Sequence record: GQ981382
Reading direction: 5' to 3' (one strand)
DNA from: Shigella phage SP18
DNA: 64,000 nucleotides
Part shown: in pieces, positions 3,559 through 21,429 of the stretch
How positions within the stretch are numbered: the stretch's first letter is position 1
How the letters are laid out: every line of letters begins with the position of its first letter
Position numbers and translations under genes: made by a program
Notes under the pieces: generated by a model
The model's database searches: none
What the model was told of the DNA's origin: nothing
The model's input: the letters and a program-made list of their open reading frames with translations, nothing else

Positions 3559-4002
3559 TTAAATTTCAAATTCTTTGCGGAAGTTGGAAGCATAAGACTG
3601 AACTGATGCTTTGTTGAATCCAAACTCACGCACAATCATATCAATAACAGCCCTACGAGCGGCACCATTAGACATATTGACAGTTTTGAACATATCATAG
3701 CATAAATCTTTGTTGCTCATACCGGAGCGTTTAGGTGTCTTACGTTCAGTTTTTGGTTCAGTCTTAGGAGTAGGTTTAACTTCTGGTTTAACCTGTCCAT
3801 CATTCAGACCTTTAAAAATTTTACCTGCCAGAGTTGCCAGTTTAGCAGCTTCGCCACGAGTGATACCAAATACTGCCGGGTTAAATGAAATACCTTCAGC
3901 TGTCAGACGTTTAAAGAACATACGTGCGGCGGATTGTGCTTCAGCTTCAGAAGAGTTGTTTAATGCCAGTTTAACATACTTAACCAGTTTTGAAGTTTTC
4001 AT
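3559..4002 (-). CDS. hypothetical protein sharing a C-terminal domain (AARRAxID...VQSYASNFRK) with the upstream paralog
   Basis: Internal ATG at 4000-4002; C-terminal 45 aa alignable with gene 4086-4511. Confidence 0.55.
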   Translation of the reverse strand: MKTSKLVKYVKLALNNSSEAEAQSAARMFFKRLTAEGISFNPAVFGITRGEAAKLATLAGKIFKGLNDGQVKPEVKPTPKTEPKTERKTPKRSGMSNKDLCYDMFKTVNMSNGAARRAVIDMIVREFGFNKASVQSYASNFRKEFEI

Positions 4003-4037
4003 TTTATTATCCCGTTTGTTTATTTGGTAACTCAATA

Positions 4038-4073
4038 TGGGATAATTATACACTATCCCACCTGGAAGTAAAA
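4038..4073 (-). promoter_or_regulatory. early promoter variant with -10 TATAAT in loop of inverted repeat TGGGATA/TATCCCA; -35 TTTTAC
   Basis: Related to the TATCCCAT promoter family; upstream of gene 3559-4002. Confidence 0.45.
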
Positions 4074-4085
4074 CACTTTTCTCAA

Positions 4086-4511
4086 TTATTTTTGAGCTTT
4101 GCGGAAGTTGGATGCATATGACTGAACAACAGTCTTTTTGATATCATGGGTGGTAACCAGAACATCAATCAGAGCGCGACGAGCTGCATTATCATTCATA
4201 TCAATTTCTGAAAATGCCTGGAAGCAAATGTCACGAGCGTTACCAGATTTGGACTGGATTTTTTCTTCTTTAACTTCTTCAATTGGGAATTCAATCATTT
4301 CAGCTTGGATTAATTCAATGATAGATTCTTTTGACTGTTTGGTGTTTACCTTCAGTTCAGAATTAAGGGACTTGGCGATGGCAACAATCTGGGTTGAAGT
4401 CAGATGAATAAGTGCATCTTCACGAATGCAGATTTCACATACTTCGTCAGCAACCATTTTGTTGGTGATGCGGGTAACAGAGAATGCAGAGGTCAGGGTC
4501 AGGAAGTTCAT
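4086..4511 (-). CDS. hypothetical protein, paralog of 3559-4002
   Basis: ATG at 4509-4511 with GGAG RBS; C-terminal ...NAARRALIDVLV...VVQSYASNFRK. Confidence 0.55.
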   Translation of the reverse strand: MNFLTLTSAFSVTRITNKMVADEVCEICIREDALIHLTSTQIVAIAKSLNSELKVNTKQSKESIIELIQAEMIEFPIEEVKEEKIQSKSGNARDICFQAFSEIDMNDNAARRALIDVLVTTHDIKKTVVQSYASNFRKAQK

Positions 4512-4542
4512 TTTATTTCTCCAAAGTTTTGTTTGATTCAGT

Positions 4543-4591
4543 GTGTAACTCAGTATGGAATCATTATGCACCCGGTCAATTCGGATGTACA
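4543..4591 (-). promoter_or_regulatory. sigma70-like early promoter repeat (-35 TGTACA, 17 bp, -10 CATAAT, conserved leader)
   Basis: Immediately downstream of minus-strand terminator and upstream of gene 4086-4511. Confidence 0.5.
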
Positions 4592-4630
4592 CTACTTTTT
4601 GAAGAAAATTTCAAATTTATTCGGGGTATA

Positions 4631-4659
4631 AAAAAAGCCCCAACCTTTCGGAAGGGGCT
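4631..4659 (-). terminator. rho-independent terminator (AGCCCC-loop-GGGGCT then U7 on minus strand) downstream of tRNA region
   Basis: Stem 4636-4641/4654-4659, A-run 4631-4636 on plus. Confidence 0.6.
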
Positions 4660-4660
4660 A

Positions 4661-4860
4661 TACCTTGTCGGGGTTCCACCTGCAAGGCAAGTGTTTGTAC
4701 GAAACGCCGGGATTCGAACCCGGTTATTAAGCAGTTGACGCTACTCAATATTTTTAAAAGGCCATATCTCGACCATATCCGAACGTTCCGTCAAAAACGC
4801 TACTCGGCTTACGGCAAAGATATTTCCTCGAATCGATAATTCGGTGCGCCGTTTCAGCTG
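4661..4860 (-). ncRNA. candidate stable RNA with a perfect tRNA-like T-arm (CCGGG-TTCGAAT-CCCGG) that does not fold as a canonical tRNA
   Basis: No ORF over about 300 nt between tRNA cluster and terminator; T-arm at complement 4704-4720; possible acceptor-like pairing CGGAACG/CGTTTCG. Confidence 0.3.
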
Positions 4861-4960
4861 TGAGATAAGGGACTTTAAGAGGTCAACTCATGTACGCCTT
4901 AAAGTCGGGTCTTATTCAGGGAACTTCAGTCCGACGACTTACCGGTAGCGACCCGGTTTC

Positions 4961-5200
4961 TCATTCAATTGTAATAGCTAATTTGACTTTAACAACCTTA
5001 TAATTGGAATCAAGGTCATTGAATTCCATAAAATTTGTTGCTAATCTGCGAGTCGGGAAACTTAGATATTTATTATGCTCAGGTGGAGCAGTTAATGCAA
5101 ACCATGGGACTTGTTTATCATTTTCATCAAACTCATCAAAGCTATAAACCAGCTCGTTGCTGGTTATATCCATAACTGCATATGATTCACTAATAACCAT
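4961..5200 (-). CDS. hypothetical protein
   Basis: ORF track 79 aa immediately downstream of tRNA cluster. Confidence 0.45.
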   Translation of the reverse strand: MVISESYAVMDITSNELVYSFDEFDENDKQVPWFALTAPPEHNKYLSFPTRRLATNFMEFNDLDSNYKVVKVKLAITIE

Positions 5201-8183: not shown

Positions 8184-8860
8184 TATATTACCTTATTAAT
8201 TTTATCAAAAAGTTCATCGAGTGTGCCATCGTTTTTAATAACAATGTCACTAGCTAGTGGTGGAAGTCCAGCTTCCGTAATGTGTGTATCAGTAGAATGA
8301 TTTGCTTCATCGCGTTCTACAAAGATTATTGTAGCACCCATCGCCCGAAGCGAATCAAGTTCGTTCTTTTGGCGAACATCTGGGACAACGTAATATTTAT
8401 ATCCAGAATAGAGGTTGTCAAGATAGTTGCATGCAAAAGTTTTAATCCAAAACATGCTGTCGAACTCTGTACAAACGATGTCAGTTCCAAGGGTCTGCAT
8501 GAAACGTCTAACTGTCCAGGGCTCAACATTATTTAGTGTGTGAAATTCAATAATTTTACGAACCATATCTGGATTCGGAAGGTCAAGATTGTATTGTTGT
8601 TTCAACCATTCAAGAGCATCAACCAGAAGAATATAAGCTTCGGTGTTGTTCATTATCAAGGTTTTTTCACGGTCATAACCTTGTCCATCAAAATTTTCCA
8701 GGGTCAAATTGTGTGGCAGGTCTTGACGAATCCACGCGTTATAAAGCGCTTCTTTAATCGGACCTGCAAGCTGCCACTTTGTTCCATTTTGACTAATAAC
8801 ATAATCAGCAGTCGTATCTTTACCACTGCGTTTTTTACCCACAATCGCAATTAATTTCAT
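8183..8860 (-). CDS. 1: deoxynucleoside monophosphate kinase (gene 1)
   Basis: P-loop GKKRSGKDT and strong similarity to recalled T4 gp1 along its length. Confidence 0.9.
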
Positions 8861-9456
8861 ACGTTTCTCATAGATGGATGCATTGACTTAGACCTGATTT
8901 CCTGTTGCATTGCTGCATTACTATCAATCTGTGGTCTACCTTCTATTATTATACCATCAATTTCTACAGCAAAAGACTTAAAGTTGAAAGTTGCTGTTGC
9001 GTTGATAGCGGGGTCAGAATCTTCTTTATATGAATACTGAATCTCTGACAGGTCGGACGGCCATGCTCCATAGTAATGGATTGACATGACAATTTTGTCC
9101 TTGTTGTTATCTAAGATATGAAGCGTAACCGCTTCAGGACGACCCTTTGGATGCCATGCTTTTGATTCGTGTGTGATGTAGTTGTTGAGCGAGAGCATCC
9201 ATTTATAGATATCAAGCCATGCTCTTAAGTCTTTGTCGCACAGAAAGTTAACAATCAACGGGTCGAATTCTATTGTACTACCAGGAAGACTGGAGCGATT
9301 TATACCTTGTGTTCCCCCAGGGACATCCGTCACAGGAATGTGAACTCCTGGAAGGGTAACGTCTTGAACGTTGAGTTTAAAGGTCTGTGTGAGGTTTGAA
9401 TCGCTTACCTCTAATATAAAGTTAGTCGTGTTAGTTTGATTATATAAACCTGACAT
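8857..9456 (-). CDS. 3: gp3 tail completion / sheath stabiliser protein (assigned by position and size)
   Basis: ATG at 9454-9456 with AAGGTG RBS; 199 aa between genes 1 and 2 as in T4; the longer track ORF is rejected. Confidence 0.55.
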   Translation of the reverse strand: MSGLYNQTNTTNFILEVSDSNLTQTFKLNVQDVTLPGVHIPVTDVPGGTQGINRSSLPGSTIEFDPLIVNFLCDKDLRAWLDIYKWMLSLNNYITHESKAWHPKGRPEAVTLHILDNNKDKIVMSIHYYGAWPSDLSEIQYSYKEDSDPAINATATFNFKSFAVEIDGIIIEGRPQIDSNAAMQQEIRSKSMHPSMRNV

Positions 9457-9467
9457 AGTGCACCTTG

Positions 9468-9506
9468 TTTGCTTTAAAACAATCAGTGTTATAATGGTTC
9501 TAGACC
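9468..9506 (+). promoter_or_regulatory. MotA-box middle promoter (TTTGCTTTA-N13-TATAAT) with conserved start region GGTTCTAGACC, oriented antisense to genes 2 and 4
   Basis: TGCTT to TATAAT spacing 20 nt; identical -10/+1 block to copies at 44487 and 50159. Confidence 0.55.
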
Positions 9507-9541
9507 TTTTGTCCTTACCAATAACACTGACCGATAATAGA

Positions 9542-10375
9542 TTATGAATTTCTCCAAACTTTTTGTGCAGAGAATTTTTTGCCTTTGCTGTAAAAAGCTT
9601 GCAACGGAAGCATAACAACGTTTGCCCAGTCACTGGGCTTGATTTCAGTGATAGTACCTTTTATATTGCCAGGTATATATGCTTTAATCATCTGGTCAGC
9701 CCCTTTAAATCCCTTCACCTTTGACCAATCAATTTTCAGATGAGTCTTGTTCGTAATCGTAGGAGTATTAGCATATTGCTTAAGAAGTTCCTCAAGGAAC
9801 TCTTGACGCGCCTTCGGCGGAATATAGTGCAAGTTCAAACCATACATCAAATTGTGCTTACCTAGCCCAAGATAAATGATTAACGGATATTTGTCCCAGT
9901 ACGGAAGAGTATCCTTATGCTTTGCATCATAGATATAAGCATAAATTTTACCCGGTTGAGGTTTAGCCGTTACGTGGCCACGAACTGATTTCTTAATTGT
10001 CTCAGCGAACCATCTGGCAGATTTGGTGTTGCTTGCTGCACCTTCGTTAGCAATCTTATCTCTTATGCTCTTTCTAAAGCTATTCACCATTATCAGCTGG
10101 CGTTCAGCCTTCGTAAGTTTACCAGCAGGTTTCTTTTTGAGTTTGGATACTTTATAAGCAGTCTGAATTCTCGAATTGTATCTTGACATGCTTTTGGTAA
10201 AGGTCGAATAGTTGATTCCTTTCTCTTCAGCAAACTTCTTCGAAGTCATTCCCTTTTCTTTTGCTGTATAAAATTCAACCCCTATCTCAACCCATTGTTG
10301 TTCGGATTTACTGGGTTTTGGACCTGGTTTATCTGCAGATTCATTGATAAATGTAAAAATACTCATCCTTTCCAT
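9542..10375 (-). CDS. 2: gp2 DNA end protector protein (assigned by position and size)
   Basis: 277 aa, basic; lies between 3 and 4 as in T4. Confidence 0.55.
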
Positions 10376-10812
10376 CCTAATTTTTTCAGTGAGTTTTCAG
10401 TGATTATCCTGAACGTTATACCCATCTTATCCGCGGTAGCTTGTGCAGCTTTCCATTTGTCAGAGTTAACGCTCCAGGTGTACATTTCGTTAATAAATCT
10501 CTTTTTACTCGCAGTGGTATTATTGGCCGGTTTGGTTGGGGGTCTTGTTTCTTTTAATGGCTTAACTTCGAAAAAGAACTGCTGTCCTGTATCGAACTTA
10601 ACCCAGAAATCCATATAATATCTGCGCTTTTTACCTTCAGCATTGCAGAAGTATGGAATAATCACAGTCTCAGAGCCCCATTGAACAACGTTCGGATGGT
10701 TGTCGAGCCATCTCATCAACCAAGCCTCCCAGCTTGACCGGTATTGTATTTTCTTCCAGTCGCCCTTATATTTTTCTATGTTGGTGGGCTTGAATTTCCC
10801 GGAGTATGCCAT
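10363..10812 (-). CDS. 4: gp4 head completion protein
   Basis: 149 aa with GGAGG RBS and TATAAATA late promoter on minus strand 24 nt upstream; divergent from gene 53 as in T4. Confidence 0.65.
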
Positions 10813-10840
10813 ATAGCCTCCTAATAAATATTGATATACT

Positions 10841-10852
10841 TATTTATAAATG
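10841..10852. promoter_or_regulatory. palindromic late-promoter element between divergent genes 4 and 53 (TATAAATA on minus strand; TATAAATG on plus)
   Basis: Sequence TATTTATAAATG; exact 8/8 T4 late consensus on minus strand 24 nt from gp4 ATG. Confidence 0.6.
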
Positions 10853-10860
10853 GAGGCTTT

Positions 10861-11463
10861 ATGCTTTTTTCATTTTTTAACCCTATTGATTATGATGCGA
10901 AAACAATCAGAAAAAACTCGGCATCATTGACGAAAGAAGATGTCTTAAGCATTCCAATGACTGACATCTTCAGAAACTACCGCGCTTATTTCGATAAGGT
11001 CGCTGCTAATTATACACCCAAAACCTATTACATTGCAGGAGCTCCGAGACCCGAAGAATTGGCATATCAGCTCTATGGTAACACACAACTCTATTGGGTT
11101 CTCCTGATGATTAATGACATCTATGACCCTTATTATGGTTGGCTTGGTTCTCAGGAATCATCCTATCAGGCATCTATTCAGAAATATTCGAATGTCGGTG
11201 GTAACCAGGTCCTTTATCATGTGAATGAAGATGGTGAGAAGTTCTGGAACCTTGTATCTTATCCTGATAATCCATACACCTGGTACGATAAAGGTGATAA
11301 GAACAAATTATACCCGCAGTATGAAGGTCCATTAGCTGCAGTGGATATCTATGAAGATGCTATCCGTAAAAATGAATACAAACGCGAAATAAAAATAATT
11401 GACCCGGAAGACATTGAGTCATTTATTTCCGCGCTTATCCGTGAAATGGAGAAGGCTTTATGA
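10861..11463 (+). CDS. 53: gp53 baseplate wedge subunit
   Basis: ATG at 10861 with GGAGG RBS; 200 aa; immediately precedes gene 5 with ATGA overlap. Confidence 0.7.
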   Translation: MLFSFFNPIDYDAKTIRKNSASLTKEDVLSIPMTDIFRNYRAYFDKVAANYTPKTYYIAGAPRPEELAYQLYGNTQLYWVLLMINDIYDPYYGWLGSQESSYQASIQKYSNVGGNQVLYHVNEDGEKFWNLVSYPDNPYTWYDKGDKNKLYPQYEGPLAAVDIYEDAIRKNEYKREIKIIDPEDIESFISALIREMEKAL

Positions 11464-13247
11464 TTAATATGTCAGATAATGTAAGTTGGTTCGTCGGGGT
11501 TGTCGAAGACCGAATGGACCCACTTCAGCAAGGTCGTGTGCGTGTTCGTGTATGGGGTATGCATCCATATGAGAAAGCACAAGGGCCTGTTAAAGGTATC
11601 AGAACCGAAGACCTTCCTTGGATGTCTGTATTGATGCCGACATCATCTGCATCAGTTTCTGGGATTCAAACTGCCATGACTGGTATGGTCCCAGGTACTC
11701 AAGTATATGGTCACTTTTTAGACAAGTGGAAGCTCAACGGTCTTGTTATTGGTACGTATGGTTCAGCCTCAAGACAAAAGGCAAATCCTAACGAAGGCTT
11801 CTCTGACCCTACAGGACAATACCCGCTTTATGTTGGTAATGATGCTGCAGCGCTTAACCGTGGCGGTGAAGTCGGTTATGATGCAACTTCGAACGTAATT
11901 CAGGATGCGAACCTTGACCTTGGTATTAACCCAGATGGTCTTGATTTGAGCCAGGTTAAGCCTGATGATAATCCTAATTTCACAATTGAAAATATGCTCC
12001 ACCGTGATGAAGGTCTTCGACTGAAGGTATATTGGGACACCGAAGGTTATCCTACTATAGGCATAGGACACTTAATTGCACCACAACCTATTAGAGATAT
12101 GAATCAGATAAACAAAATATTATCTAATCAAATAGGCCGTGAAGTTAAAGGTAACCCTGGTGCAATATCAATGGACGAGGCTTCTAAGTTATTCCAAGAA
12201 GACCTTAAAAAAGTCCAAAACGATATAGGTAGGCATAGTGTTGTGGGTCCGGTTTATAATAAAGAAAACCGTTCGAGACAAATGGCTCTTGAAAACATGG
12301 CTTTCCAAATGGGATTAGGTGGATTGGCTAAATTCCGTGGAATGCTTAGCGCAATGTTAGTAGGTGATTATAAAAAAGCATTTGAGGAAGCTCGTAATTC
12401 AGTATGGTTTAACCAAACTAAAGGACGTGCATCAAGGGTATCAATGATTATCCTTACCGGTAATATGGAATCATATGGTATTATGGCTCCTAAAGAAAGG
12501 TCATTTAAAGGGCGTTCATATAGGATGATTCAAACCTTTGCAGCCCCTGCAAATTCTGACCCAGCCGACCCATGGACTCCAGAAGATACACGGATTCTAT
12601 TTAAAGAGCCAGAATCAAGTTACAAGGGCGAATATCCTTACGTGCAGACAATGCAAACTGAAGGCGGTCATATTCAGGAATTCGATAACACCCCTGGACA
12701 AGAACGTTATCGACTGATTCACCCAACCGGTTCCTACGAGGAAGTTGCACCAGATGGTCGTAAGACTTCGAAGACAGTGGCCGATGGTTATTATATGACC
12801 CAGGGTGATTCGAGTACTTACGTTGGTGGTAATAATAAAGTCAACGTTGGCGGTGATGAAACCTATTATAATATGGCTAATGTTCGTCGTCAGACCGATG
12901 GAAACGAAAGCATTCATATTCGTGGGAATGAAACCAAAACTGTAGAAGGTAATGGAACTTTGCTTGTTAAAGGAAATGTTAAAATAGTTATTATGGGTAC
13001 TGCTGATATAACTGTTGAACAAGAAGCATATATTACGGTTGAAAAAGATACAACAGTTAATGTCAACCAGAATGCAGATATAAGTGTTAAACAAAAGGCC
13101 ACAATCAATGCTCAAAATATGGATGTAAATGTCGAACAAGATTTAAATTTTGCAGCGACGAACATTAATTTAAACGCATCAAATACTGTGCATATGGATG
13201 GTGGTTCATTAGCTAAAGTATCTGGTGGCAACGTACAGGTCGGTTAA
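11460..13247 (+). CDS. 5: gp5 baseplate hub subunit and tail lysozyme (cell-puncturing device)
   Basis: N-terminal NVSWFVGVVED...; internal T4-lysozyme-like domain (HRDEGLRLKVYWDTEGYPTIGIGH); C-terminal beta-helix repeats. Confidence 0.9.
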   Translation: MINMSDNVSWFVGVVEDRMDPLQQGRVRVRVWGMHPYEKAQGPVKGIRTEDLPWMSVLMPTSSASVSGIQTAMTGMVPGTQVYGHFLDKWKLNGLVIGTYGSASRQKANPNEGFSDPTGQYPLYVGNDAAALNRGGEVGYDATSNVIQDANLDLGINPDGLDLSQVKPDDNPNFTIENMLHRDEGLRLKVYWDTEGYPTIGIGHLIAPQPIRDMNQINKILSNQIGREVKGNPGAISMDEASKLFQEDLKKVQNDIGRHSVVGPVYNKENRSRQMALENMAFQMGLGGLAKFRGMLSAMLVGDYKKAFEEARNSVWFNQTKGRASRVSMIILTGNMESYGIMAPKERSFKGRSYRMIQTFAAPANSDPADPWTPEDTRILFKEPESSYKGEYPYVQTMQTEGGHIQEFDNTPGQERYRLIHPTGSYEEVAPDGRKTSKTVADGYYMTQGDSSTYVGGNNKVNVGGDETYYNMANVRRQTDGNESIHIRGNETKTVEGNGTLLVKGNVKIVIMGTADITVEQEAYITVEKDTTVNVNQNADISVKQKATINAQNMDVNVEQDLNFAATNINLNASNTVHMDGGSLAKVSGGNVQVG

Positions 13248-13248
13248 T

Positions 13249-15312
13249 ATGAATTACTACGATAAAGTTGATGAAGTGGTAGGGACTGTAACAAGTCCCT
13301 GTGATGACGCAGTAGGACCCGGTGAATATCGCCGGGTTAAATGGGAATTATATAACCCAACAGGTGCTTTTATTCAACCTGGGAATGGCGTTGAATGGGA
13401 TACCGAGATTATTCCACTAGCTACACATTTATACACACAAAATCCATTTGGTAATAAGTCCGAAACTTTTCCTGCACCTCCGCCGCCGGAAGATGGAACA
13501 AGTCAAGGTATCTGGTGTGCTAAACTCGGAATATTCTTTATTACGCAATTGGATTTAGAAAATTATGTAGAATCGATTGGTGCAACTCTTTTGTCCGGTA
13601 ATGATTGGTACGGTGCTGATTTATCAAAATCCGTATTGTATAAAACATCTATTGAATATGATATGTATCGCATCGAAAACTGTGGCGGTGTATGGACGTC
13701 ACAAGGCCCTAGAATGGACCCCAGGACGATGATTGCAGTTACGGCTGATTATCATATGTATGTCAACTTTAACGGCCTTGGTGACTCCCGCAGGGCTTAT
13801 TTGAAGTACTATGAGACAAAACCTTGTACTTATGTTGGACTGGTATTAAATCTAGATGTTGATATGAGTATCCCAGGAACTCCGATTCCGGGACCGGTAT
13901 CCATTGGGTCTTTACCGCCAGAAATAACCGGGCGAGCCAGGGCAATAAGCTGTGTTCCTTTTACAGCGGAATTCCCTTACAACGGATTGACCAATGCGAT
14001 TATGGCTTCATGGAATACATCTAGGAATTCATTCAAATTATATTGGGATATGCTCCCTGGATGGCCATCATCTGGTGGAACCGATTGGGAAAAATTCTTC
14101 GATTCTGGTTATAGTAAGCTATCGGTCGCAATGGAAGAGCTAGGCAACTCAGCTGTTGCTATGTGTCAATATGTTCAGCAAATGGCTTTTCTTGCATTTA
14201 AAGATGCCATATCACAGGTCTTGAATATTGTTGGCGGTGGGTGGGACTTACTTAAAAGCTTTTTACCCTCGATTACTATTATGGGCATGACTATTGACCT
14301 GGAAGACCTCTGCACTTCAGGTGATGGTGTACAGAAATTAAAAGAAGCATGGAAAAACTTTAATTTAGAAGAAACCATCCAATCGATTTATTCTGCCATT
14401 GGGTCGGCATACGATTATTCGGTTGAACGCGTCAAGATGTATTCGCGTGACCTTATTGATGCAATTACAGACTTGTATGACTGGGCCTGGTCTCAATTGC
14501 TTATGGCTGGTGTTGCATTATCAAAACTGTGTGTAGACCTCGCTCAAATATGGAGTATGCCTCCTATAGTTCCGAACCCAGTTTGGAGCGTTATTACTGC
14601 GGTCAAGGAAATGATGAAGCAAGTTAAACCACTGGACATGATAATGAGCGGTAACTTTCCAGGATTCACAGCATCAGATGTTTATCAAATGGTTATGGAA
14701 AAGGTAGACCAGAAAATAGACGAAGCTTATGCAATGATTGAGGCTCTTAAAACCAAGGCACTCAATCTGTGGAATGAGATTAAGCTCAAAAAGCAAGAAG
14801 TACAAAAACAAGCTATTGAATTTAAACAATATCTTTCAGGAATGTACGAAAAAGTTACAGACGAGCTAACTGCTCAGAAGGAAGCCGCATTATCACAAGC
14901 TGAAGCTGCACTTGAACTTTTAAAGAATAAATATAATCAGATTAAGAACTCTATTACCGAAAGTCAAACCTCTGTTTCTGATGTATTAGATATGGCTTTA
15001 GAAGAATTCAAAAAACTTCCTATTGTGGCTCAAATGGAAGAACTTCTCGGTATGCTCGGAGCTACTGTAGATGATATCATGGTTATATACGAGAACTCAG
15101 TAACTAAAGCAAAATCTTTATATCACGAATTTACTGATGGTTCCAGGTCAATGAAAGACTTGTGCAAATCAATGTATAACCAAATATCAACATTATCCTT
15201 AAGTAAGGTGGTACAATGGATTAATAAGATGCTGGGAATATTCGGTTTAACGATTGCATTTCCATCCCTTTCCATTTGCATACCTTGTTTAGAATCTCCT
15301 ACTAGGAATTAA
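13249..15312 (+). CDS. unrecognised 687-aa protein between genes 5 and 6; Pro-rich N-terminal half, long helical C-terminal half
   Basis: ATG at 13249 just after gp5 stop (TAATATG); continuous ORF ending 1 nt before gene 6; no T4 counterpart recalled at this position (T4 has small 5.1/5.3/5.4). Confidence 0.6.
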   Translation: MNYYDKVDEVVGTVTSPCDDAVGPGEYRRVKWELYNPTGAFIQPGNGVEWDTEIIPLATHLYTQNPFGNKSETFPAPPPPEDGTSQGIWCAKLGIFFITQLDLENYVESIGATLLSGNDWYGADLSKSVLYKTSIEYDMYRIENCGGVWTSQGPRMDPRTMIAVTADYHMYVNFNGLGDSRRAYLKYYETKPCTYVGLVLNLDVDMSIPGTPIPGPVSIGSLPPEITGRARAISCVPFTAEFPYNGLTNAIMASWNTSRNSFKLYWDMLPGWPSSGGTDWEKFFDSGYSKLSVAMEELGNSAVAMCQYVQQMAFLAFKDAISQVLNIVGGGWDLLKSFLPSITIMGMTIDLEDLCTSGDGVQKLKEAWKNFNLEETIQSIYSAIGSAYDYSVERVKMYSRDLIDAITDLYDWAWSQLLMAGVALSKLCVDLAQIWSMPPIVPNPVWSVITAVKEMMKQVKPLDMIMSGNFPGFTASDVYQMVMEKVDQKIDEAYAMIEALKTKALNLWNEIKLKKQEVQKQAIEFKQYLSGMYEKVTDELTAQKEAALSQAEAALELLKNKYNQIKNSITESQTSVSDVLDMALEEFKKLPIVAQMEELLGMLGATVDDIMVIYENSVTKAKSLYHEFTDGSRSMKDLCKSMYNQISTLSLSKVVQWINKMLGIFGLTIAFPSLSICIPCLESPTRN

Positions 15313-15313
15313 A

Positions 15314-17272
15314 ATGGCTACTCCTACGAATTACCAATTAACAAGAACCGTTAACGCAATCCCAAAAGTATTTGTGGGAGCTACGTTTGAAGAAATTAAA
15401 AAGAACATCATTGACTGGTTATCAAGCCAGGATGAATTTAAGGATTATGATTTCGTAGGTTCGCGAATGAATATCCTGATTGATATGCTTGCATACAATA
15501 CATTGTATATGCAACAGTTTGCTAACACGGCAGTTTACGAATCATTTATCGGAACTGCAAACCTAAGGTCTTCGGTTGTTCAAGCTGCACAGGATAATGG
15601 TTATCTTCCATCTTCGCGTTCGGCCGCAAAGACTTCGGTTATGCTGACATGTTCTCACGCTCTCCAACCATCGAATATTGAAATCCCGCGTGGGACTAAG
15701 TTCCTGGCTTATGCTCGTGATACATCAGCTGACCCTTATATGTTTGTCACAACGGATAATGTAATCGCGGTAAAAGACATTAACAACCAATATCTGCCGA
15801 TTGTATCCCTTGCACAAGGTCGTATTATTCGTACTGAACTTTTGTATGACCCGAAACAACCTATTCTTATTCGTGACCCGGATATTGACCGAAAAGAAGT
15901 TAAGCTTTTTGTGAACGGTATCGAGTGGACTGACTGGACAAACAAATCAATGGTTCATGCTGGCTCAACGTCCACCATTTTCTATATGCGTGAAACTGTT
16001 GATGGTAATACCGAATTCTTCTTCGGTGAAGGTGAATCGACCAAATCTGTTGCCGGTGGCGTATTGGAAGCCAACTATATTGGTGGATTGAAACCCGTAC
16101 AGGATTCGACAATTGTTATCGAATATCTTCGCACATCAGGGGCCGATGCAAATGGTGCAGTTGATTTCAGCTATGCAGACTCCTTGACTTATATCACTGT
16201 TGACAAGATTACAGAAAACTACAATAACGATAAAGATTACGTTGGAGCTGATGGCGGTGGTGACCCGGAAGATATTGAACGAATCCGTGAACTGGCTGTA
16301 GTTAAACGTGAAGCGCAGATGCGTGCTGTCACCGGGACCGATTATGATACATTCGTATCAGAAAGATTCGGCTCAATCGTACAAGCCGTACAGACGTTTA
16401 CAGACCCAAATAAACCTGGATATGCGTTTATATCAGTTAAACCTAAATCGGGCTTGTATCTCACCGCAGTGCAGCGTGAGGACATCAAAAACTACCTTAG
16501 TGAGTTCAACGTATCGACAATTACACCATCAGTTATTTCTCCTGATTATTTGTTCCTTAAACACAATATCAAAGTGTCTTATGCGCTGAATAAATTACAG
16601 GAATCTGAACAGTGGTTGCAAGCACAAATCATTAACCAGATTGACCGCTATTATATTGATGAAGTTGAATTGTTTAACCACAGTTTTGCTAAATCGAAAC
16701 TGCTCACTTATGTAGATAATACCGACCATAGTATTTTGGGTTCGTCTGCAACGGTGACAATGGTTCGCGAGGTCTTGAACTTCTTTAAGACTCCAGAATC
16801 CGGCATTAAATATTATAATCAATATACTAATAGGTCGGTGGAATCAAGCGAATTTGAATTCGTTCCAACAAACCAAAGCGATACCGTTACCTCATATAAC
16901 GTCCGTATTGTAGCGACTGACCGCAACTCATCTGGTGATGGTAAAATGGTCATTGGTCCGTTCCGTCCAGGTGATGTTCAGCTTAATGCGAATATTCAAC
17001 CTTACACAGGTAATGACTTTAATAAGATGGTTGCACCAGCTGACCAGACTCAATACTTTGTAATCGGTGAAATCGATTATTGGTCTGATTATATCTTCTG
17101 GGACATTGCCGCGATTGGTTTGACTTCGGACCGTTTTGAAGTGCAATCAATCGAACTGTATGCGGGTCCAGACCAGGACAACATCTACACAAAAGACGGT
17201 TCGCTTATCGTATTCGAAAATGACCTTCGTCCACAGTATACGACTATTAATTTAGAACCAATTACATTATAA
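15314..17272 (+). CDS. 6: gp6 baseplate wedge subunit
   Basis: N-terminus MATPTNYQLTRTVNAIP... aligns with recalled T4 gp6; 652 aa. Confidence 0.9.
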   Translation: MATPTNYQLTRTVNAIPKVFVGATFEEIKKNIIDWLSSQDEFKDYDFVGSRMNILIDMLAYNTLYMQQFANTAVYESFIGTANLRSSVVQAAQDNGYLPSSRSAAKTSVMLTCSHALQPSNIEIPRGTKFLAYARDTSADPYMFVTTDNVIAVKDINNQYLPIVSLAQGRIIRTELLYDPKQPILIRDPDIDRKEVKLFVNGIEWTDWTNKSMVHAGSTSTIFYMRETVDGNTEFFFGEGESTKSVAGGVLEANYIGGLKPVQDSTIVIEYLRTSGADANGAVDFSYADSLTYITVDKITENYNNDKDYVGADGGGDPEDIERIRELAVVKREAQMRAVTGTDYDTFVSERFGSIVQAVQTFTDPNKPGYAFISVKPKSGLYLTAVQREDIKNYLSEFNVSTITPSVISPDYLFLKHNIKVSYALNKLQESEQWLQAQIINQIDRYYIDEVELFNHSFAKSKLLTYVDNTDHSILGSSATVTMVREVLNFFKTPESGIKYYNQYTNRSVESSEFEFVPTNQSDTVTSYNVRIVATDRNSSGDGKMVIGPFRPGDVQLNANIQPYTGNDFNKMVAPADQTQYFVIGEIDYWSDYIFWDIAAIGLTSDRFEVQSIELYAGPDQDNIYTKDGSLIVFENDLRPQYTTINLEPITL

Positions 17273-17300
17273 GCCTCTTCGGAGGCTTTAAGGAATCTTA

Positions 17301-20300
17301 ATGACTGTTAAAGCCCCTTCTGTTACTAGCTTGCGGATTGATAAACTATCTGCTAACCAGGTTAGTATTAAATGGGATGATGTAGGCTCCAACTTTTACT
17401 ATTTTGTGGAGATTGCCCAAATCACAGAAAATGGAGTACGCATCCCAACTAGAGATTTAATTTGGCGCGACCTTGGTTATACCGCAGACAATGAATGGTT
17501 CGAGCAGGAATATATTCGTCCGTTGACAAGTTATCAGATGCGTGTGTCTGTTGCGGCAATGGGCTTCGAACGGTCTGATTGGGAATATACCGAGGAATTT
17601 GAAACCTTTGCAACGAACGCATATACTTTTGAACATATGCGCGAATTTAGTTTGGCCAATAAATTCATTGAAGAAAAATTCACCAATAAAAATCAGAGCT
17701 ATATCAACTTTAACAATGATATTATTATGGCTTCATTGATGTCCGAAGACTTTACATGGACTTCTGCTTATTCTCATTTGTCTTCAATTTCGAACTATGT
17801 TTTGCAAGAAGACCAATATCATGAAATCCAGGGACCGATTCAAGCAGTTTGTGTTGACCAAAACCGTACGATGCTTGCTGAACTTGGTGGCGTGCTTTAT
17901 CTGTTCGAACGCTTTCAGCCGATGGTTAAAGTCTCCAATGACAAAGGTCAGAACTGGTATTATATAAGACTCTTTAATGAGCGTATCGGTAACCCTGTGT
18001 CAAGGACTGTATATTATCAGACTGATACCACAACTTACGTTCTGGGCTATGACCGCATATTCTATGGTCGCCAATCAAGCGATATAAGATGGTCTGCGGA
18101 TGATGTTCGATTCAGTTCTGAAGACATTACATTTGCTAAAGTCGGTTCAGATATTAACCTTGGATTTGATATTGAAATCTTCGGGAACTATGCAAGACTT
18201 CCGGCCTATATTTCACAAATAGCTGAAGCTATCACGGTTTCGGATGAATTCATTTATGTTGCGGCGCGCGGTCGTGTATATAAAGCAAAAACCTCTGATG
18301 CACCGATTGATACAACTCCAGGGTCTCCGACCTTCGGTGAAAAACTATTTGAAACTGGTTACAGTACAATTACGACAAACCCTAAAGCAGTTTGTTATAA
18401 AATGGATTCAGTTCAAGGTCATACGTTTGCATTAATTACGGGTGAAGTTAAAGAAGAAAGACAAGACCCAACTAAACCTGAAAACGTTGTTGACTCTCTG
18501 GATAAAGGCGTTTATAAATTAGACCCCGATACTGATACATGGACGAGAGTTTTTGGCAATACAGAAGAAGAACGTCGTCGAATCGAACATGGTTATGCGA
18601 GCATGTCAACTGATGGCATCGAAGTGTTCTTTAGCTCCAGTAACTTCAAATATTCGGTTGAGCCTGATACTGAACTACCTCTTAAATATCCTGATGAAGT
18701 TAATGAAGCAGTCAAATACGTTTACGATGAGCAATGGATACATGATAAGCATTACCTGATGATGAGCTTCAGAGCTGGCGAAGATTCTGGCTTCGAAGAG
18801 TTCAAACCAGGCCGTATGACTTACTATGCAGAGCCGTTCTTTAACTGGTCAAGACGTGACGATACTCGTTGTTGGATTACGACTTCAGACCGAGCAATGG
18901 TTGTCTATAACGATATTCTTTATCAGTACATCATCGATACATTTGGTGGAACTTCCCCGGAACGTATCGTGCATGAATATTGGAACAAAGGTCGAGTAAC
19001 GATTACTGCACCTAACATCGAATTCAACGGCTTTAAAAAATATGCGTCCGGGATTATGCTTCATAAAAATACCGGGGAATTAATTGGCTATTTTGAATTT
19101 GACTATCGCGTGCGTGATGAAGTGCGTATCATCTGGAAGCCAAAAGAAATTATGCTTATGGCTGAACTACAAAATCAGGAACATGATATTCCGTGGACTC
19201 CGGAAAATGAGAATAAGGAAAAAGACCCGGACTTGCAACCACTGTTAACGAAGATGATTCCAGATAGTTATCTTTTACAGGATAGTAAATTTGAAAAATT
19301 CTGTGAATACTATTTGCAGTTCATCAGTGATGGTTCCGGTACATATTATAACAACCTGTTGAATCTTATTCGTAATCAATATCCGCGCGAGGAAGATGCA
19401 TGGGAATATCTCTGGAGCGAAATGTACAAACGCAACATTTACCTCTCCAAGGAAAAACGTGACGAAGCTGTTCGATTCTTCCAGGCCCGACAGTCTGATT
19501 TTTGGGCAACAAAAGGTACAGAAGCGTCTTATAAATTCCTGTTCAAATTACTGTATAATGAAGATGTTGAAATTGACATCGAATCCAAGAACGGAACCGA
19601 GTATGATATCGTAGTTGAATCTGATAATATCAGTGAAGACATTGTAGGCCAAACCATTTATACCGCAACTGGGCGCAGTAATGTGACTTATATGGAGCGC
19701 GATTATAAAGATGGTAAATTAAGATGGCGTATTACTATTCATAACCTCCTGGGACGTTTTATTGTTGGACAAGAAATTAAATCAGAAAGAACCTCATTCG
19801 AGGGGATGATTGTACAAGGTGTTCGTGGTAAAGAGTTGTTGAGTAACAACATCGATTATATTAACCGTAATCGCTCTTATTACGTAATGACAATTAAGTC
19901 AAACCTTCCGACCTCCCGTTATCGTAATGACGTTTTGAGATTCGTTCACCCGGTTGGATTTGGATTCATCGGTATCACGTTGCTGACAATGTTTGTTAAC
20001 GTTGGTTTGACTCTTAAACATACCGAGACAATCATTAATAAATTAAGTAACTATAGATGGTCTTCTGGTATTCCATCAGAATGGAATGACCGAGTTGCGG
20101 TGATTGGTGTTGATGGCACTATTGAGAAAAACCCTATCACAGGTGAAGCAATATATAACATCGCTCCTAATGCTGGCCAGCCTTTCCCGTTACCAGCCGA
20201 TTATGACGCCGAGAACGATTTCTCTATGTTCTATGGATTGTTACCGTCACAACGTCGTGGAAAATATAGTCCACTGTTTGACCAGTCAGCTGTTACATTC

Positions 20301-20396
20301 TCGAACTGGAGAGCATTAGTTGACCAACGTCTTAAAGATGATATTGGTAATCCAAGAGACCCGGTTAATCCTACACAGGTAAATGTAAATGAATAA
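17301..20396 (+). CDS. 7: gp7 baseplate wedge initiator
   Basis: 1031 aa (T4 gp7 1032 aa), in conserved position. Confidence 0.85.
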   Translation: MTVKAPSVTSLRIDKLSANQVSIKWDDVGSNFYYFVEIAQITENGVRIPTRDLIWRDLGYTADNEWFEQEYIRPLTSYQMRVSVAAMGFERSDWEYTEEFETFATNAYTFEHMREFSLANKFIEEKFTNKNQSYINFNNDIIMASLMSEDFTWTSAYSHLSSISNYVLQEDQYHEIQGPIQAVCVDQNRTMLAELGGVLYLFERFQPMVKVSNDKGQNWYYIRLFNERIGNPVSRTVYYQTDTTTYVLGYDRIFYGRQSSDIRWSADDVRFSSEDITFAKVGSDINLGFDIEIFGNYARLPAYISQIAEAITVSDEFIYVAARGRVYKAKTSDAPIDTTPGSPTFGEKLFETGYSTITTNPKAVCYKMDSVQGHTFALITGEVKEERQDPTKPENVVDSLDKGVYKLDPDTDTWTRVFGNTEEERRRIEHGYASMSTDGIEVFFSSSNFKYSVEPDTELPLKYPDEVNEAVKYVYDEQWIHDKHYLMMSFRAGEDSGFEEFKPGRMTYYAEPFFNWSRRDDTRCWITTSDRAMVVYNDILYQYIIDTFGGTSPERIVHEYWNKGRVTITAPNIEFNGFKKYASGIMLHKNTGELIGYFEFDYRVRDEVRIIWKPKEIMLMAELQNQEHDIPWTPENENKEKDPDLQPLLTKMIPDSYLLQDSKFEKFCEYYLQFISDGSGTYYNNLLNLIRNQYPREEDAWEYLWSEMYKRNIYLSKEKRDEAVRFFQARQSDFWATKGTEASYKFLFKLLYNEDVEIDIESKNGTEYDIVVESDNISEDIVGQTIYTATGRSNVTYMERDYKDGKLRWRITIHNLLGRFIVGQEIKSERTSFEGMIVQGVRGKELLSNNIDYINRNRSYYVMTIKSNLPTSRYRNDVLRFVHPVGFGFIGITLLTMFVNVGLTLKHTETIINKLSNYRWSSGIPSEWNDRVAVIGVDGTIEKNPITGEAIYNIAPNAGQPFPLPADYDAENDFSMFYGLLPSQRRGKYSPLFDQSAVTFSNWRALVDQRLKDDIGNPRDPVNPTQVNVNE

Positions 20397-21393
20397 CTCT
20401 ACCGTAGTTTACCGTTCGATTGTTACATCAAAATTCAGAACGGAAAAAATGTATAACTTCTACAGCGTCATCGGAGATGGCGCCAATGAAAATACAATGT
20501 ATGTCACGTTCGGTCGTGCAGAACCATGGGCTGCAAACGAGAACGACCCGGGCTTTGCTCCACCTTATCCGGTTGATGATGCCCAAGGTGTTGAAGATGT
20601 TTGGACTAATATGATGGGTGCAGTCAAGGTGTATAAATCCATGCTTGACTGCGTGGTTCCTCGTAAGGATTGGGGTGATGTTCGTTATCCTAACCCGCTG
20701 AACTTTCAGATTGGCGAAATCGTCGTAAGTAATACCGCACCATATAACCGAACTGATGTTGGTAAAGGTTGGATGGTTTATCGTTGTGTGGATGTTCCTG
20801 AATCTGGGACCTGTTCGATTTATTCCATCACTAATAAGCAAGAATGTCTTAAGCTTGGTGGTAAATGGACTTCAGACTATGCTTCCAGCCGAGCACCATC
20901 AGGGACTGGTGATACTGAAGGACGTGTTGATATGGGTGATGGTTATCTCTGGGAATATCTCTATGAGATTCCACCTGACGTATCCATTAACCGTTGTACA
21001 AACGAATATATCGTTGTCCCATGGCCAGAAGAAATTGCAGAAGACCCTGAACGTTGGGGATACAAAGATAACCTGACATGGCAGCAAGATGATTATGGTT
21101 TAATCTATCGTATCAAGGGAAATACAATTCGATTCAAGGCTTTCATGGATTCGATTTATTTCCCTCAGTTCAGTCTTCCAGGTAACAAAGGTTTTAGACA
21201 AATTTCAATTGTCGCTAACCCTCTGGAAATTAAAGCTGCTCCTAATGACCCGAATATCAAAGCAACAAAAGAATATTACGATGCTATTGATTTGAGTCGA
21301 CATTCTGGTGAAATGATTTACATGGAAAACAGACCACCTGTTTATCGTGCGATGGACCAAACCGAAGAAGTAAATATTATTTTTGAATTCTAA
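20389..21393 (+). CDS. 8: gp8 baseplate wedge subunit
   Basis: 334 aa as in T4; terminator hairpin follows. Confidence 0.85.
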   Translation: MNNSTVVYRSIVTSKFRTEKMYNFYSVIGDGANENTMYVTFGRAEPWAANENDPGFAPPYPVDDAQGVEDVWTNMMGAVKVYKSMLDCVVPRKDWGDVRYPNPLNFQIGEIVVSNTAPYNRTDVGKGWMVYRCVDVPESGTCSIYSITNKQECLKLGGKWTSDYASSRAPSGTGDTEGRVDMGDGYLWEYLYEIPPDVSINRCTNEYIVVPWPEEIAEDPERWGYKDNLTWQQDDYGLIYRIKGNTIRFKAFMDSIYFPQFSLPGNKGFRQISIVANPLEIKAAPNDPNIKATKEYYDAIDLSRHSGEMIYMENRPPVYRAMDQTEEVNIIFEF

Positions 21394-21396
21394 CTA

Positions 21397-21420
21397 GGGA
21401 CCTTCGGGTCCCTTTTTATT
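21397..21420 (+). terminator. rho-independent terminator GGGACC-TTCG-GGTCCC-T5 after gene 8
   Basis: UUCG tetraloop hairpin plus T-run. Confidence 0.75.
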
Positions 21421-21421
21421 T

Positions 21422-21429
21422 TATAAATA
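21422..21429 (+). promoter_or_regulatory. late promoter TATAAATA upstream of gene 9
   Basis: Exact consensus 27 nt before ATG. Confidence 0.65.

Follow-up and report, generated by a model that had tools for sequence, protein, structure and literature searches.

The 687-codon gene between baseplate genes gp5 and gp6 of Shigella phage SP18 probably encodes the Tevenvirinae counterpart of RB43 orf205w, namely a large spike-tip protein of non-PAAR type that stands in for gp5.4 (and gp5.1) where the gp5 beta-helix ends. The family is already known, as is the proposal that RB43 orf205w is a non-PAAR spike tip. The new element, from sequence comparison, is that the gene and the final ~88 codons of gp5 make up an exchangeable cassette. 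The first-pass annotation of this DNA had named the product, from its position beside the cell-puncturing spike, as a candidate tail-tip accessory or injected protein. The tail-tip part of that reading is supported by exclusivity with gp5.4, by co-inheritance with the gp5 tail in three genera, by the agreement of gp5 signature and tip type in 13 phages and by the larger tip of RB43.

The locus bears on the passage of contractile tails through the punctured envelope and on the part that the spike tip plays in it. The importance of T4 gp5.4 was demonstrated only recently, on hosts with deep-rough LPS. Around one in seven T4-like phage records in the collection searched (214 with the 687-type gene versus 1375 of the PAAR type) would carry a different, 7-fold larger tip.

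The gp5–gp6 interval and its gene family

The window is the whole stretch of SP18 DNA that was analyzed (64,000 nucleotides; GQ981382). Within it, the 687-codon ORF is intact and, as had been claimed, fills the entire gap between gp5 and gp6. The last nucleotide of the stop codon is 13247 for gp5 and 15312 for the ORF, and gp6 begins with an ATG at 15314, which leaves a 1-nt gap on each side. The T4-like neighborhood is borne out as well, since gp53, gp5, gp6 and gp7 are recognized by Pfam; gp5 shows the Gp5_OB, lysozyme and Gp5_C domains. The genes concerned are as follows.

10861..11463, + strand: gp53 baseplate wedge gene (Pfam Phage_gp53, E=7e-74); 603 nt, as in VR20 and Bp7 gp53
13249..15312, + strand: putative tip-protein gene, 687 aa (phrog_5296; RB43 orf205w orthologue), translationally coupled to gp5 and gp6
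15314..17272, + strand: gp6 baseplate wedge gene with five gp6 Pfam domains; VR20-like backbone, 98.1% identical to VR20

The ORF is listed from a GTG (13225..15312, + strand). Translation from the conserved start, an ATG at 13249, yields 687 aa; this start is supported by the first residues, M1-N-Y, which are at least 90% conserved among 60 homologues. The true start of gp53 is likely the ATG at 10861, which has a GGAGG Shine-Dalgarno sequence, and not the listed TTG at 10831. A search for a late promoter directly upstream of the ORF found no TATAAATA on the + strand from 8401 to 21422. The gene is presumably transcribed by read-through from upstream within the gp53-gp8 block.

The gene had been described as unrecognised, which is wrong: it belongs to phrog_5296, a common conserved family that includes RB43 orf205w. 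The phrog_5296 profile matches residues 1-682 over profile positions 1-684 of 685 (E=0, 1192 bits), and a tblastn search against RB43 covered 99% of the query at 42.9% identity (E=2e-172). Matches were found in 214 phage records and are approximately full length in 212 of them. The ORF is far beyond chance, because 62 homologues at 31-99% identity share 47 invariant columns. Full-length homologues have ~670-760 aa and occur in at least eight genera. The first-pass annotation had held that a common, already annotated gene with a known role would speak against its reading. The family is indeed common; the role published for it, that of RB43 orf205w, is only putative.

A profile search of 1.8 billion representatives for farther relatives returned only ~8 full-length clusters plus fragments, and no PAAR, VgrG or toxin fusions of the family. 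The phT4A homologue lacks residues 1-192. An N-domain swap was considered for this case and rejected; the loss is most likely a deletion or an assembly problem, because the record is labeled a "partial genome" and leaves 170 nt unannotated behind gp5.

Synteny in related phages, which the first-pass annotation had proposed as a check, is strict. The gene follows gp5 directly, where T4 has genes 5.1-5.4, in the window, Bp7, CJ20, RB43, PD112, KP27 and PM2; RB43ORF205w occupies the same locus in RB43 as the gene studied here. The remote metagenomic homologue likewise follows a gp5 C-terminus.

An HMM was built from 57 gp5.4 sequences and recovered T4 gp5.4 as a control with E 2.7e-57. In six-frame translations of the window and of the remaining Bp7 genome it found no PAAR/gp5.4 ORF (best E 0.91). 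This agrees with the earlier statement that the interval holds no gp5.4-type ORF, and the separate gp5.4 homologue that might have lain elsewhere was found neither in the window nor in the rest of Bp7. In the genomes examined, the 687-type gene and gp5.4 are mutually exclusive.

The gp5 tail, the adjoining gene and their junctions

The backbone of the window is overall 97-98% VR20-like (Gaprivervirus, PAAR type). Identity profiles change within gp5 and again just before gp6. Between these points the DNA is 97-100% identical to Dhakavirus Bp7 and has no VR20 homology, whereas the flanks are 63-85% identical to Bp7 and 91-100% identical to VR20. The cassette itself is 99-100% identical to Bp7. 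VR20 has gp5.1 and a PAAR gp5.4 at this position.

11460..12981, + strand: gp5 body (OB, lysozyme and most of the beta-helix; Gp5_OB 1.6e-60, Phage_lysozyme, Gp5_C); VR20-like backbone
12966..12981, + strand: left junction, codons for VKGNV in the gp5 beta-helix, common to both cassette types; VR20 homology stops at 12981
12982..13247, + strand: gp5 C-terminal tail module of the 687 type, last 88 codons, ending ...NTVHMDGGSLAKVSGGNVQVG
12982..15302, + strand: putative spike-tip cassette (gp5 tail and tip gene), standing in for the gp5 tail, gp5.1 and gp5.4 of VR20, JS98 and T4
15303..15316, + strand: right junction, TAGGAATTAAA plus the gp6 ATG; gp6 ribosome-binding region common to both cassette types; VR20 homology resumes at 15303

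Up to 12981 the DNA of the gp5 body is 96.7% identical to VR20, and its protein is 99% identical to VR20 and 89% to Bp7. Body and tail of gp5 behave differently, with identities (body/tail) of 99/29% for window and VR20, 89/100% for window and Bp7, 99/36% for T4 and PD112 and 66/89% for PD112 and window. The comparison of PD112 with T4 (Tequatrovirus) breaks on the left at the same gp5 codon as the window, immediately after ...GTTAAAGGnAAyGTTA. For Bp7 and JS98 (Dhakavirus) the left break, taken as the HSP end, is ~50 nt further 3'. The right junction is identical in all three pairs (window-VR20, PD112-T4 and Bp7-JS98).

These breaks indicate that the gp5 tail and the tip gene form one heritable block that has been exchanged among Gaprivervirus, Dhakavirus and Tequatrovirus. 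The gene had been described as inserted beside an otherwise T4-like locus; instead, it replaces gp5.1, gp5.4 and the last ~88 codons of gp5. Because close Gaprivervirus relatives carry gp5.1 and gp5.4, the 687-type gene is an allelic alternative and not a fixed lineage trait. Co-transfer of the gp5 tail could be due in part to where homology permits crossing-over rather than to co-adaptation.

The gp5 of the window is 15 aa longer than the PAAR-type gp5 of VR20 and JS98 and 20 aa longer than that of T4. Its tail is 100% identical to those of Bp7 and CJ20, 89-91% to PD112 and ~40% to RB43 and KP27; identity to PAAR-type gp5 tails is only 20-36%. Across 13 phages, the C-terminal sequence of gp5 predicts the type of tip gene without exception. 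Where a 687-type gene follows, all eight gp5 proteins have the C-terminus ..xGxLxK(V/I)(S/T)G(G/A)(N/T)V(Q/S)VG, with V-F in place of K-(V/I) in the most distant of them (the metagenomic relative, 31% identity); the signature is common to the window, RB43, KP27 and PM2. Four of the five PAAR-type gp5 proteins end in IDGSRI(D/N)(I/L)G, and Acinetobacter AM101 has a different end. Identities of tail and tip run in parallel (100/100, 91/72, 51/58, 39/44, 40/43 and 25/32%). From this co-inheritance with the gp5 tail we infer that the protein would bind the blunt end of the trimeric beta-helical spike.

Evidence on a location at the spike tip of the virion comes from RB43, whose virions show a larger spike-tip density by cryo-EM at 17.7 Å, which is too coarse to identify the protein (PMC12407873). 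Mattenberger et al. (bioRxiv 2025; PMC12407873) tentatively assigned this extra density to orf205w; an attempt in the same preprint to co-express orf205w with a fragment of the gp5 beta-helix was unsuccessful.

Natural near-isogenic pairs that differ essentially only in the putative cassette are available (window or CJ20 versus VR20, PD112 versus T4, and Bp7 versus JS98), and the role of the tip is therefore directly testable with T4 genetics. The junctions also show exactly where engineered constructs could be joined, on the left behind the VKGNV codons of gp5 and on the right at the ribosome-binding site of gp6.

Predicted architecture and competing readings

An AlphaFold2 (AF2) monomer model was calculated from a 60-sequence alignment, with a mean pLDDT of 87.3 and a pTM of 0.78; the interface with gp5 is outside the reach of this model. 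The predicted protein has three parts.

13249..14124, + strand: N-terminal alpha/beta domain, aa 1-292; Pro-rich, invariant C18 and C193, near-invariant C235; proposed gp5-capping domain
14125..15216, + strand: helical region, aa 293-656; helices 294-328, 398-435, 475-529, 538-575, 579-602 and 631-664
15217..15297, + strand: hydrophobic C-terminal segment, aa 657-683; conserved, with beta-strand 673-682 and C677

The outline drawn in the first-pass annotation holds in all three parts. Its Pro-rich N-terminal half with several Cys residues corresponds to 8.2% Pro and 5 Cys in aa 1-292, against 2.8% Pro in the C-terminal half, where 39% of the residues are K, E, Q, A or L. The long helical C-terminal half is seen in the AF2 model by DSSP as helices of 35-55 residues, and the hydrophobic, Cys-containing tail is the highest peak of family-averaged hydropathy (1.76, at 657-683). 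Conserved motifs of the helical region are GGGW (aa 329-332), PPxVPNP (aa 438-444) and GNFPGFT (aa 468-474).

The hydrophobic segment is predicted to fold back onto the N-domain. When the N-domain is modeled alone, confidence drops at aa 229-292 compared with the full-length model. C235 is missing in only two of the 60 sequences, and the same two are without C677; C18 and C193 are retained where C235 and C677 are lost. Self-alignment of the N-domain (hhalign with -alt) found no three-fold internal repeat. The locus points to a new protein fold that may cap a trimeric beta-helix. A tip of 76 kDa is counter-intuitive for a piercing device.

The protein could also be read as a fused or degenerate PAAR protein, with a cryptic N-terminal PAAR cone and a C-terminal extension like those of "evolved" T6SS PAAR-effectors. 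T6SS PAAR proteins with long extensions exist, the gene sits in the same genomic slot as gp5.4 and the N-terminal half carries conserved Cys residues. The cryptic PAAR fold that had been suggested for the N-terminus was looked for and rejected, with no similarity in sequence, profile or fold. The PAAR_motif family (PF05488) gave no Pfam match to the 687-aa protein (VR20 gp5.4 control, 1.7e-10), hhalign against the gp5.4 profile returned a probability of 0.2%, and the protein lacks a conical PAAR beta fold in the model. This explanation is largely refuted and we give it very little credence. A relationship of the N-domain with gp5.1, which is displaced as well, was also rejected (BLASTP E≥1.5). 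The gp5.1 protein has no Pfam family.

Two further explanations place the protein away from the tip. It could be a virion protein that is tape-measure-like or internal, located inside the hub or the lumen of the tube and expelled before the DNA, with a longer gp5 beta-helix that is bare or self-capping. Beyond the family, it resembles only tape-measure proteins in sequence (aa ~472-667), and some depositors have labeled homologues "tail length tape measure protein". The 15-20 aa by which the 687-type gp5 tail exceeds PAAR-type tails also fit this reading, and T4 without gp5.4 still assembles and infects (PMC12407873). We nevertheless consider this unlikely, because co-variation and co-transfer with the very C-terminal end of gp5, a part external to the tube, would not be expected of a protein in the lumen. 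The tape measure of T4-like phages is gp29, the Pfam search found no TMP signature domain (PhageMin_Tail), and RB43 has its extra density at the tip. That density also argues against a non-structural late protein absent from the mature particle, either an assembly chaperone dedicated to the variant gp5 tail or a selfish gene traveling with a divergent gp5 allele. Such a role would suit a locus that is a known landing site for mobile genes (e.g. segC in T4), as well as the failure of the recombinant complex with gp5 (PMC12407873). We found no virion proteomics of any phrog_5296 member in the literature; the mass spectrometry studies found concern PAAR-type Jiaodavirus phages or report gel bands only. 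A non-structural role is nonetheless hard to reconcile with conservation over the full length (~670-760 aa) that extends to homologues of 31% identity in at least eight genera and leaves 47 positions invariant, with strict synteny directly after gp5 and with a gene that replaces the only tip gene; we regard it as quite improbable.

With the preferred reading as a spike-tip protein, a mechanism can be proposed. The novel alpha/beta N-domain would cap the blunt trimeric end of the matching gp5 tail, and the hydrophobic C-terminal strand would clamp onto the N-domain via the C235-C677 pair. The bundle of long helices would form the enlarged tip, and sheath contraction would drive this tip first into the outer membrane. 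More speculatively, the amphipathic, tape-measure-like helices and the hydrophobic C-terminus could then be released, act on a membrane or on a periplasmic partner and aid DNA delivery. The gp5 tail and tip together might behave as a swappable "penetration module", for which the wedge proteins would need no compensating change, because gp6 and gp7 are 98% identical between the window and VR20. In its strongest form, which we offer tentatively and think rather doubtful, the block is a horizontally exchangeable envelope-penetration module with a new-fold cap, much like swappable receptor-binding modules. After puncture of the outer membrane the C235-C677 clamp would unlatch, and the helices would enter a membrane or open a route through periplasm and inner membrane. 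The module would be a phage counterpart of T6SS effector-bearing tips and would tune which envelopes (LPS or capsule types) can be penetrated.

Comparison with known systems

The closest known protein is RB43 orf205w (YP_239181; phrog_5296; Pseudotevenvirus RB43). It is a full-length orthologue with 43-44% identity in the same gp5-gp6 slot, and it has the same two-part architecture and the same gp5 C-terminal signature (...GSLTKITGGTVQVG). The protein of the window differs from it in being encoded on a backbone of Tevenvirinae (Gaprivervirus) type, the close relatives of which have gp5.1 and gp5.4. AF2 is confident for the window protein (pLDDT 87, 60-sequence alignment), whereas low confidence was reported for RB43 (PMC12407873).

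T4 gp5.4, the PAAR-repeat tip (PDB ID: 4KU0; PF05488), occupies the same slot and presumably does the same job, capping the blunt end of the gp5 beta-helix. It has 97 aa compared with 687 aa here, and the larger protein needs another, longer gp5 tail and displaces gp5.1 too.

Tape-measure proteins likewise have long amphipathic helices and hydrophobic segments. The profile similarity to them is weak (aa ~472-667; library-wide E 2e-8 to 3e-4) and may be compositional. PHROG tape-measure families match at E=1.5e-4 and 5e-3, with reciprocal matches that cover only aa ~472-667. This may reflect coiled-coil composition, as coiled-coil matches in PADLOC are similarly strong. The gene of the window lies between gp5 and gp6, not beside the tail-tube and chaperone genes, and its length is constant at about 690 aa. 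Membership among the tape-measure proteins was rejected, given a weak similarity confined to helices, the lack of a TMP domain and the wrong genomic position. A defense or anti-defense role was rejected as well; PADLOC gave coiled-coil matches only (ZorA, LeoA and LmuB, E≥5.6e-4), and NCBIfam gave none. Alpha-helical pore-forming toxins and translocators (YaxB, PDB ID: 6ek8; XaxA, 6gy6; IpaB, 3u0c and 5wkq) are among the closest systems compared, and a structural resemblance to them may be that of generic helical hairpins.

With the "specialised" PAAR/VgrG effectors of the T6SS and the apex domains of P2 gpV and phi92 gp138, the protein shares a concept, that of a swappable spike-tip module able to carry extra domains. 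In those tips the fold is of the PAAR or apex type and holds a metal site, whereas the window protein has neither fold. Its conserved Cys residues behave as pairs and not as a Cys4 site, since loss of C235 goes with loss of C677 and leaves C18 and C193 in place.

The gene between gp5 and gp6

The 687-aa gene that the first-pass annotation had placed in the gp5-gp6 gap (here the tip gene) is real and intact. Its + strand ORF is open throughout, without interruption, to the stop at 15312. The mechanical ORF call began at GTG 13225, and conservation places the start at ATG 13249, since M1-N-Y is conserved in at least 90% of 60 homologues. The positions listed below leave 1-nt gaps between the three genes. 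By Pfam, the neighbouring genes are gp53, gp5 (Gp5_OB, lysozyme and Gp5_C repeats), gp6 and then gp7.

Features around the tip gene (window coordinates, strand)
10841-10848, -, late-promoter motif TATAAATA, serving the divergent gp4 side
ends 13247, +, gp5 stop, from the sequence
13249-15312, +, tip gene
15314, +, gp6 ATG, from the sequence

The composition read from the sequence was also confirmed: the N-terminal half has 8.2% Pro and five Cys, Pro makes up 2.8% of the C-terminal half, where K, E, Q, A and L are abundant, and aa 657-683 form the top hydrophobic segment of the family-averaged hydropathy profile. G+C is 0.34-0.35 across 14750-15500, at the 3' end of the gene, against ~0.40-0.43 elsewhere in the gene and its flanks. 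The mechanical start of gp53, TTG 10831, is probably wrong; ATG 10861, with GGAGG upstream, is favoured and gives a 603-nt gene, as in phages VR20 and Bp7.

Across the whole window we counted 21 copies of the T4 late-promoter motif TATAAATA, where 4.8 would be expected; none of 100 shuffles had that many. None lies on the + strand in 8401-21422, and the gp53-gp5-tip-gp6-gp7 block is therefore without a perfect internal late promoter.

The tip gene is inherited with a matching gp5 tail

We compared window 8749-21313 with Bp7 (L001), VR20 (L008) and CJ20 (L009). In its gp53/gp5 N-part and in gp6-gp7, the window shares 97-98% identity with VR20, P896 and phage 212 (Gaprivervirus), and only 63-85% with Dhakavirus Bp7. 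The segment 12982-15302 (2.3 kb) is 99-100% identical to Bp7, WG01 and relatives; in the identity profile, ~13000-15400 is 97-100% identical to Bp7. Homology to VR20 ends at 12981, 88 codons before the gp5 stop, and resumes at 15303, 10 nt before the tip gene stop. By sequence comparison, the phage is a mosaic of a VR20-like Gaprivervirus backbone and a Bp7-like cassette (gp5 tail plus tip gene). CJ20, also a Gaprivervirus, carries the same cassette. The same ~0.7% separates the window from each of the ten database copies, and the window therefore represents an independent isolate of the cassette.

Comparable break points separate Bp7 from JS98 in Dhakavirus and PD112 from T4 in Tequatrovirus (flanks 96% identical); Bp7 and PD112 have the tip gene (687-type), and JS98 and T4 have gp5.1 and the PAAR tip protein gp5.4 (PAAR-type). 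The left junction directly follows the gp5 beta-helix VKGNV codons in the Gaprivervirus and Tequatrovirus pairs, and the Bp7-JS98 HSP extends ~50 nt further. The right junction, TAGGAAWTAAA-ATG at the gp6 start, is common to all three pairs. The swap requires no matching change in the wedges, since gp6 and gp7 of the window remain 98% identical to those of VR20.

Identity of the gp5 body and gp5 tail (last ~88 codons)
window - VR20: body 99%, tail 29%
window - Bp7: body 89%, tail 100%
T4 - PD112: body 99%, tail 36%
PD112 - window: body 66%, tail 89%
Bp7 - JS98: body 89%, tail 35%

The gp5 end preceding a 687-type gene reads ...xGxLxK(V/I)(S/T)G(G/A)(N/T)V(Q/S)VG in eight of eight cases, which include Bragavirus PM2, Slopekvirus KP27, Pseudotevenvirus RB43 and a metagenomic relative; the last, the most distant, has V-F for K-(V/I). 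PAAR-type gp5 ends in ...IDGSRI(D/N)(I/L)G in four of five; that of Acinetobacter AM101 differs, yet is not 687-like. Identities to the window for tail and tip protein (%) run in parallel: 100/100, 91/72, 51/58, 39/44, 40/43 and 25/32. This association over deep divergence, together with the decoupling of tail and body in recombinants, makes the strongest computational case for a contact of the protein with the extreme C-terminus of gp5, which would place it on the spike tip.

An HMM built from T4 gp5.4 and 56 homologues (T4 gp5.4 control, E=2.7e-57) detected no gp5.4/PAAR in six-frame translations of the window or of the rest of the Bp7 genome (E no better than 0.91), which bears out the earlier remark that the interval lacks a gp5.4-type ORF. 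The same interval in VR20 holds gp5.1 and PAAR gp5.4. The tip gene is conserved, mutually exclusive with PAAR and inherited as a unit with its gp5 tail.

gp5.1/gp5.4 intervals (own locus coordinates)
3722-5073, T4 (L003)
4368-5200, VR20 (L008)
2041-2776, Acinetobacter AM101 (L015)

gp5.1, which has no Pfam family, travels with gp5.4 in T4, VR20, JS98 and Acinetobacter AM101, is lost along with it upon cassette swap, and may have a function linked to the PAAR tip. Aeromonas 60AhydR15PP (L014) has gp5.4 without gp5.1, and its gp5 is on the opposite strand. Homing endonuclease genes lie within the PAAR cassette of T4 (segC, between 5.1 and 5.3, L003 4197-4619) and close to that of VR26 (segA, near gp5); such genes could promote exchange at this locus. 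P896, PSD2001 and P479 match window 10831-12400 in two pieces over ~2.2 kb, against 1.57 kb in the window, with an extra "hypothetical protein" annotated beside gp53 and gp5 under the match. This looks like a ~635-bp insertion absent from the window.

A known family and a published hypothesis

The gene had been described as unrecognised, which does not hold. It aligns with phrog_5296 ("unknown function") over its full length (E=0), and of the 214 phage records that tblastn matches, 212 have a near-full-length copy; the hosts of these phages include Klebsiella, Escherichia, Enterobacter, Cronobacter, Citrobacter and Proteus. Homologues are labeled "hypothetical protein" nearly throughout and "tape measure" in a few cases. 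A search of 5.8 billion proteins gave 62 homologues (31-99% identity), nearly all of 664-764 aa, with one 580-aa fragment. When the family profile was run against 1.8 billion representatives, it turned up no domain fusions and only ~8 clusters of full length. The tip gene is directly 3' of gp5 at every locus opened (Bp7, CJ20, RB43, PD112, KP27, PM2 and a metagenomic contig with a 31%-identical relative), and is also present in Tequatrovirus sutha and Moonvirus KM16. The phT4A homologue (L004, NC_055712, 3846-5473) is without the first ~192 residues and lies 170 nt from gp5. As the record is labeled "partial genome", this is probably a deletion or assembly artefact, not a natural N-domain variant.

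RB43ORF205w is the orthologue (43-44% identity). A 2025 bioRxiv study by the Leiman and Belin groups (PMC12407873; last updated March 2026) reports that gene 5.4 is absent from RB43, RB16 and Lw1, that orf205w takes up the 5.1-5.4 locus, and that the RB43 spike bears a larger tip in a 17.7 Å cryo-EM map, "possibly encoded by orf205w". Co-expression of orf205w with a gp5 fragment failed, and AlphaFold confidence was low (PMC12407873). We found no virion proteomics for family members in the literature. Because this orthologue was already proposed as the tip, the idea is a published, unproven hypothesis (PMC12407873), and with family and hypothesis both in the literature, the window gene adds a new member to a type of protein proposed recently. 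The candidate tail-tip reading of the first-pass annotation gains support from the tail-tip association, cassette inheritance, PAAR exclusion and the larger RB43 tip (PMC12407873). Added here are a precisely delimited "gp5 tail + tip" cassette exchangeable between genera, natural near-isogenic pairs (one of them versus T4), and a confident predicted model with a putative novel capping domain.

Predicted structure and likeness to tape-measure proteins

The AF2 model (60-sequence alignment, A1) has a mean pLDDT of 87.3 and a pTM of 0.78, and its predicted architecture is in two parts with a covarying Cys pair.

Elements of the AF2 model (aa)
1 to ~290, alpha/beta N-domain
294-328, 398-435, 475-529, 538-575, 579-602, 631-664, grouped here as helices of 35-55 residues
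673-682, C-terminal beta-strand

Residues 229-292 are confident in the full model and lose confidence in an N-only model, suggesting that this region depends on the C-terminal part. C235 is missing in two of 60 sequences (P0041 and P0062), and C677 is missing in exactly the same two; the odds are ~1/1770 if each loss is placed at random. From this shared loss, C235 and C677 most likely form a pair (disulfide or shared ligands) clamping the hydrophobic C-terminus onto the N-domain. C18 and C193 never vary. Two other Cys are lineage-specific: C639 occurs in 52 of 60 sequences, with I or F instead in two clades, and C355 in 34 of 60.

We infer that the N-domain and clamped C-terminal strand would cap the gp5 trimer. 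The helices would build the enlarged tip, which would reach the outer membrane first. More speculatively, the hydrophobic C-terminus and amphipathic helices might be released after puncture to engage a membrane or a periplasmic partner.

Outside the family, its profile matches tape-measure proteins only (aa ~472-667, E=2e-8 to 3e-4), and PHROG TMP families match the ORF weakly. PADLOC coiled-coil segments match about as strongly as tape-measure proteins, so the similarity may stem from composition instead of homology. It offers a lead on function and does not count as evidence that the protein belongs to that family. Tape-measure proteins are ejected and interact with membranes, and the likeness to them lies in the amphipathic helices of the C-terminal half, aa ~472-667.
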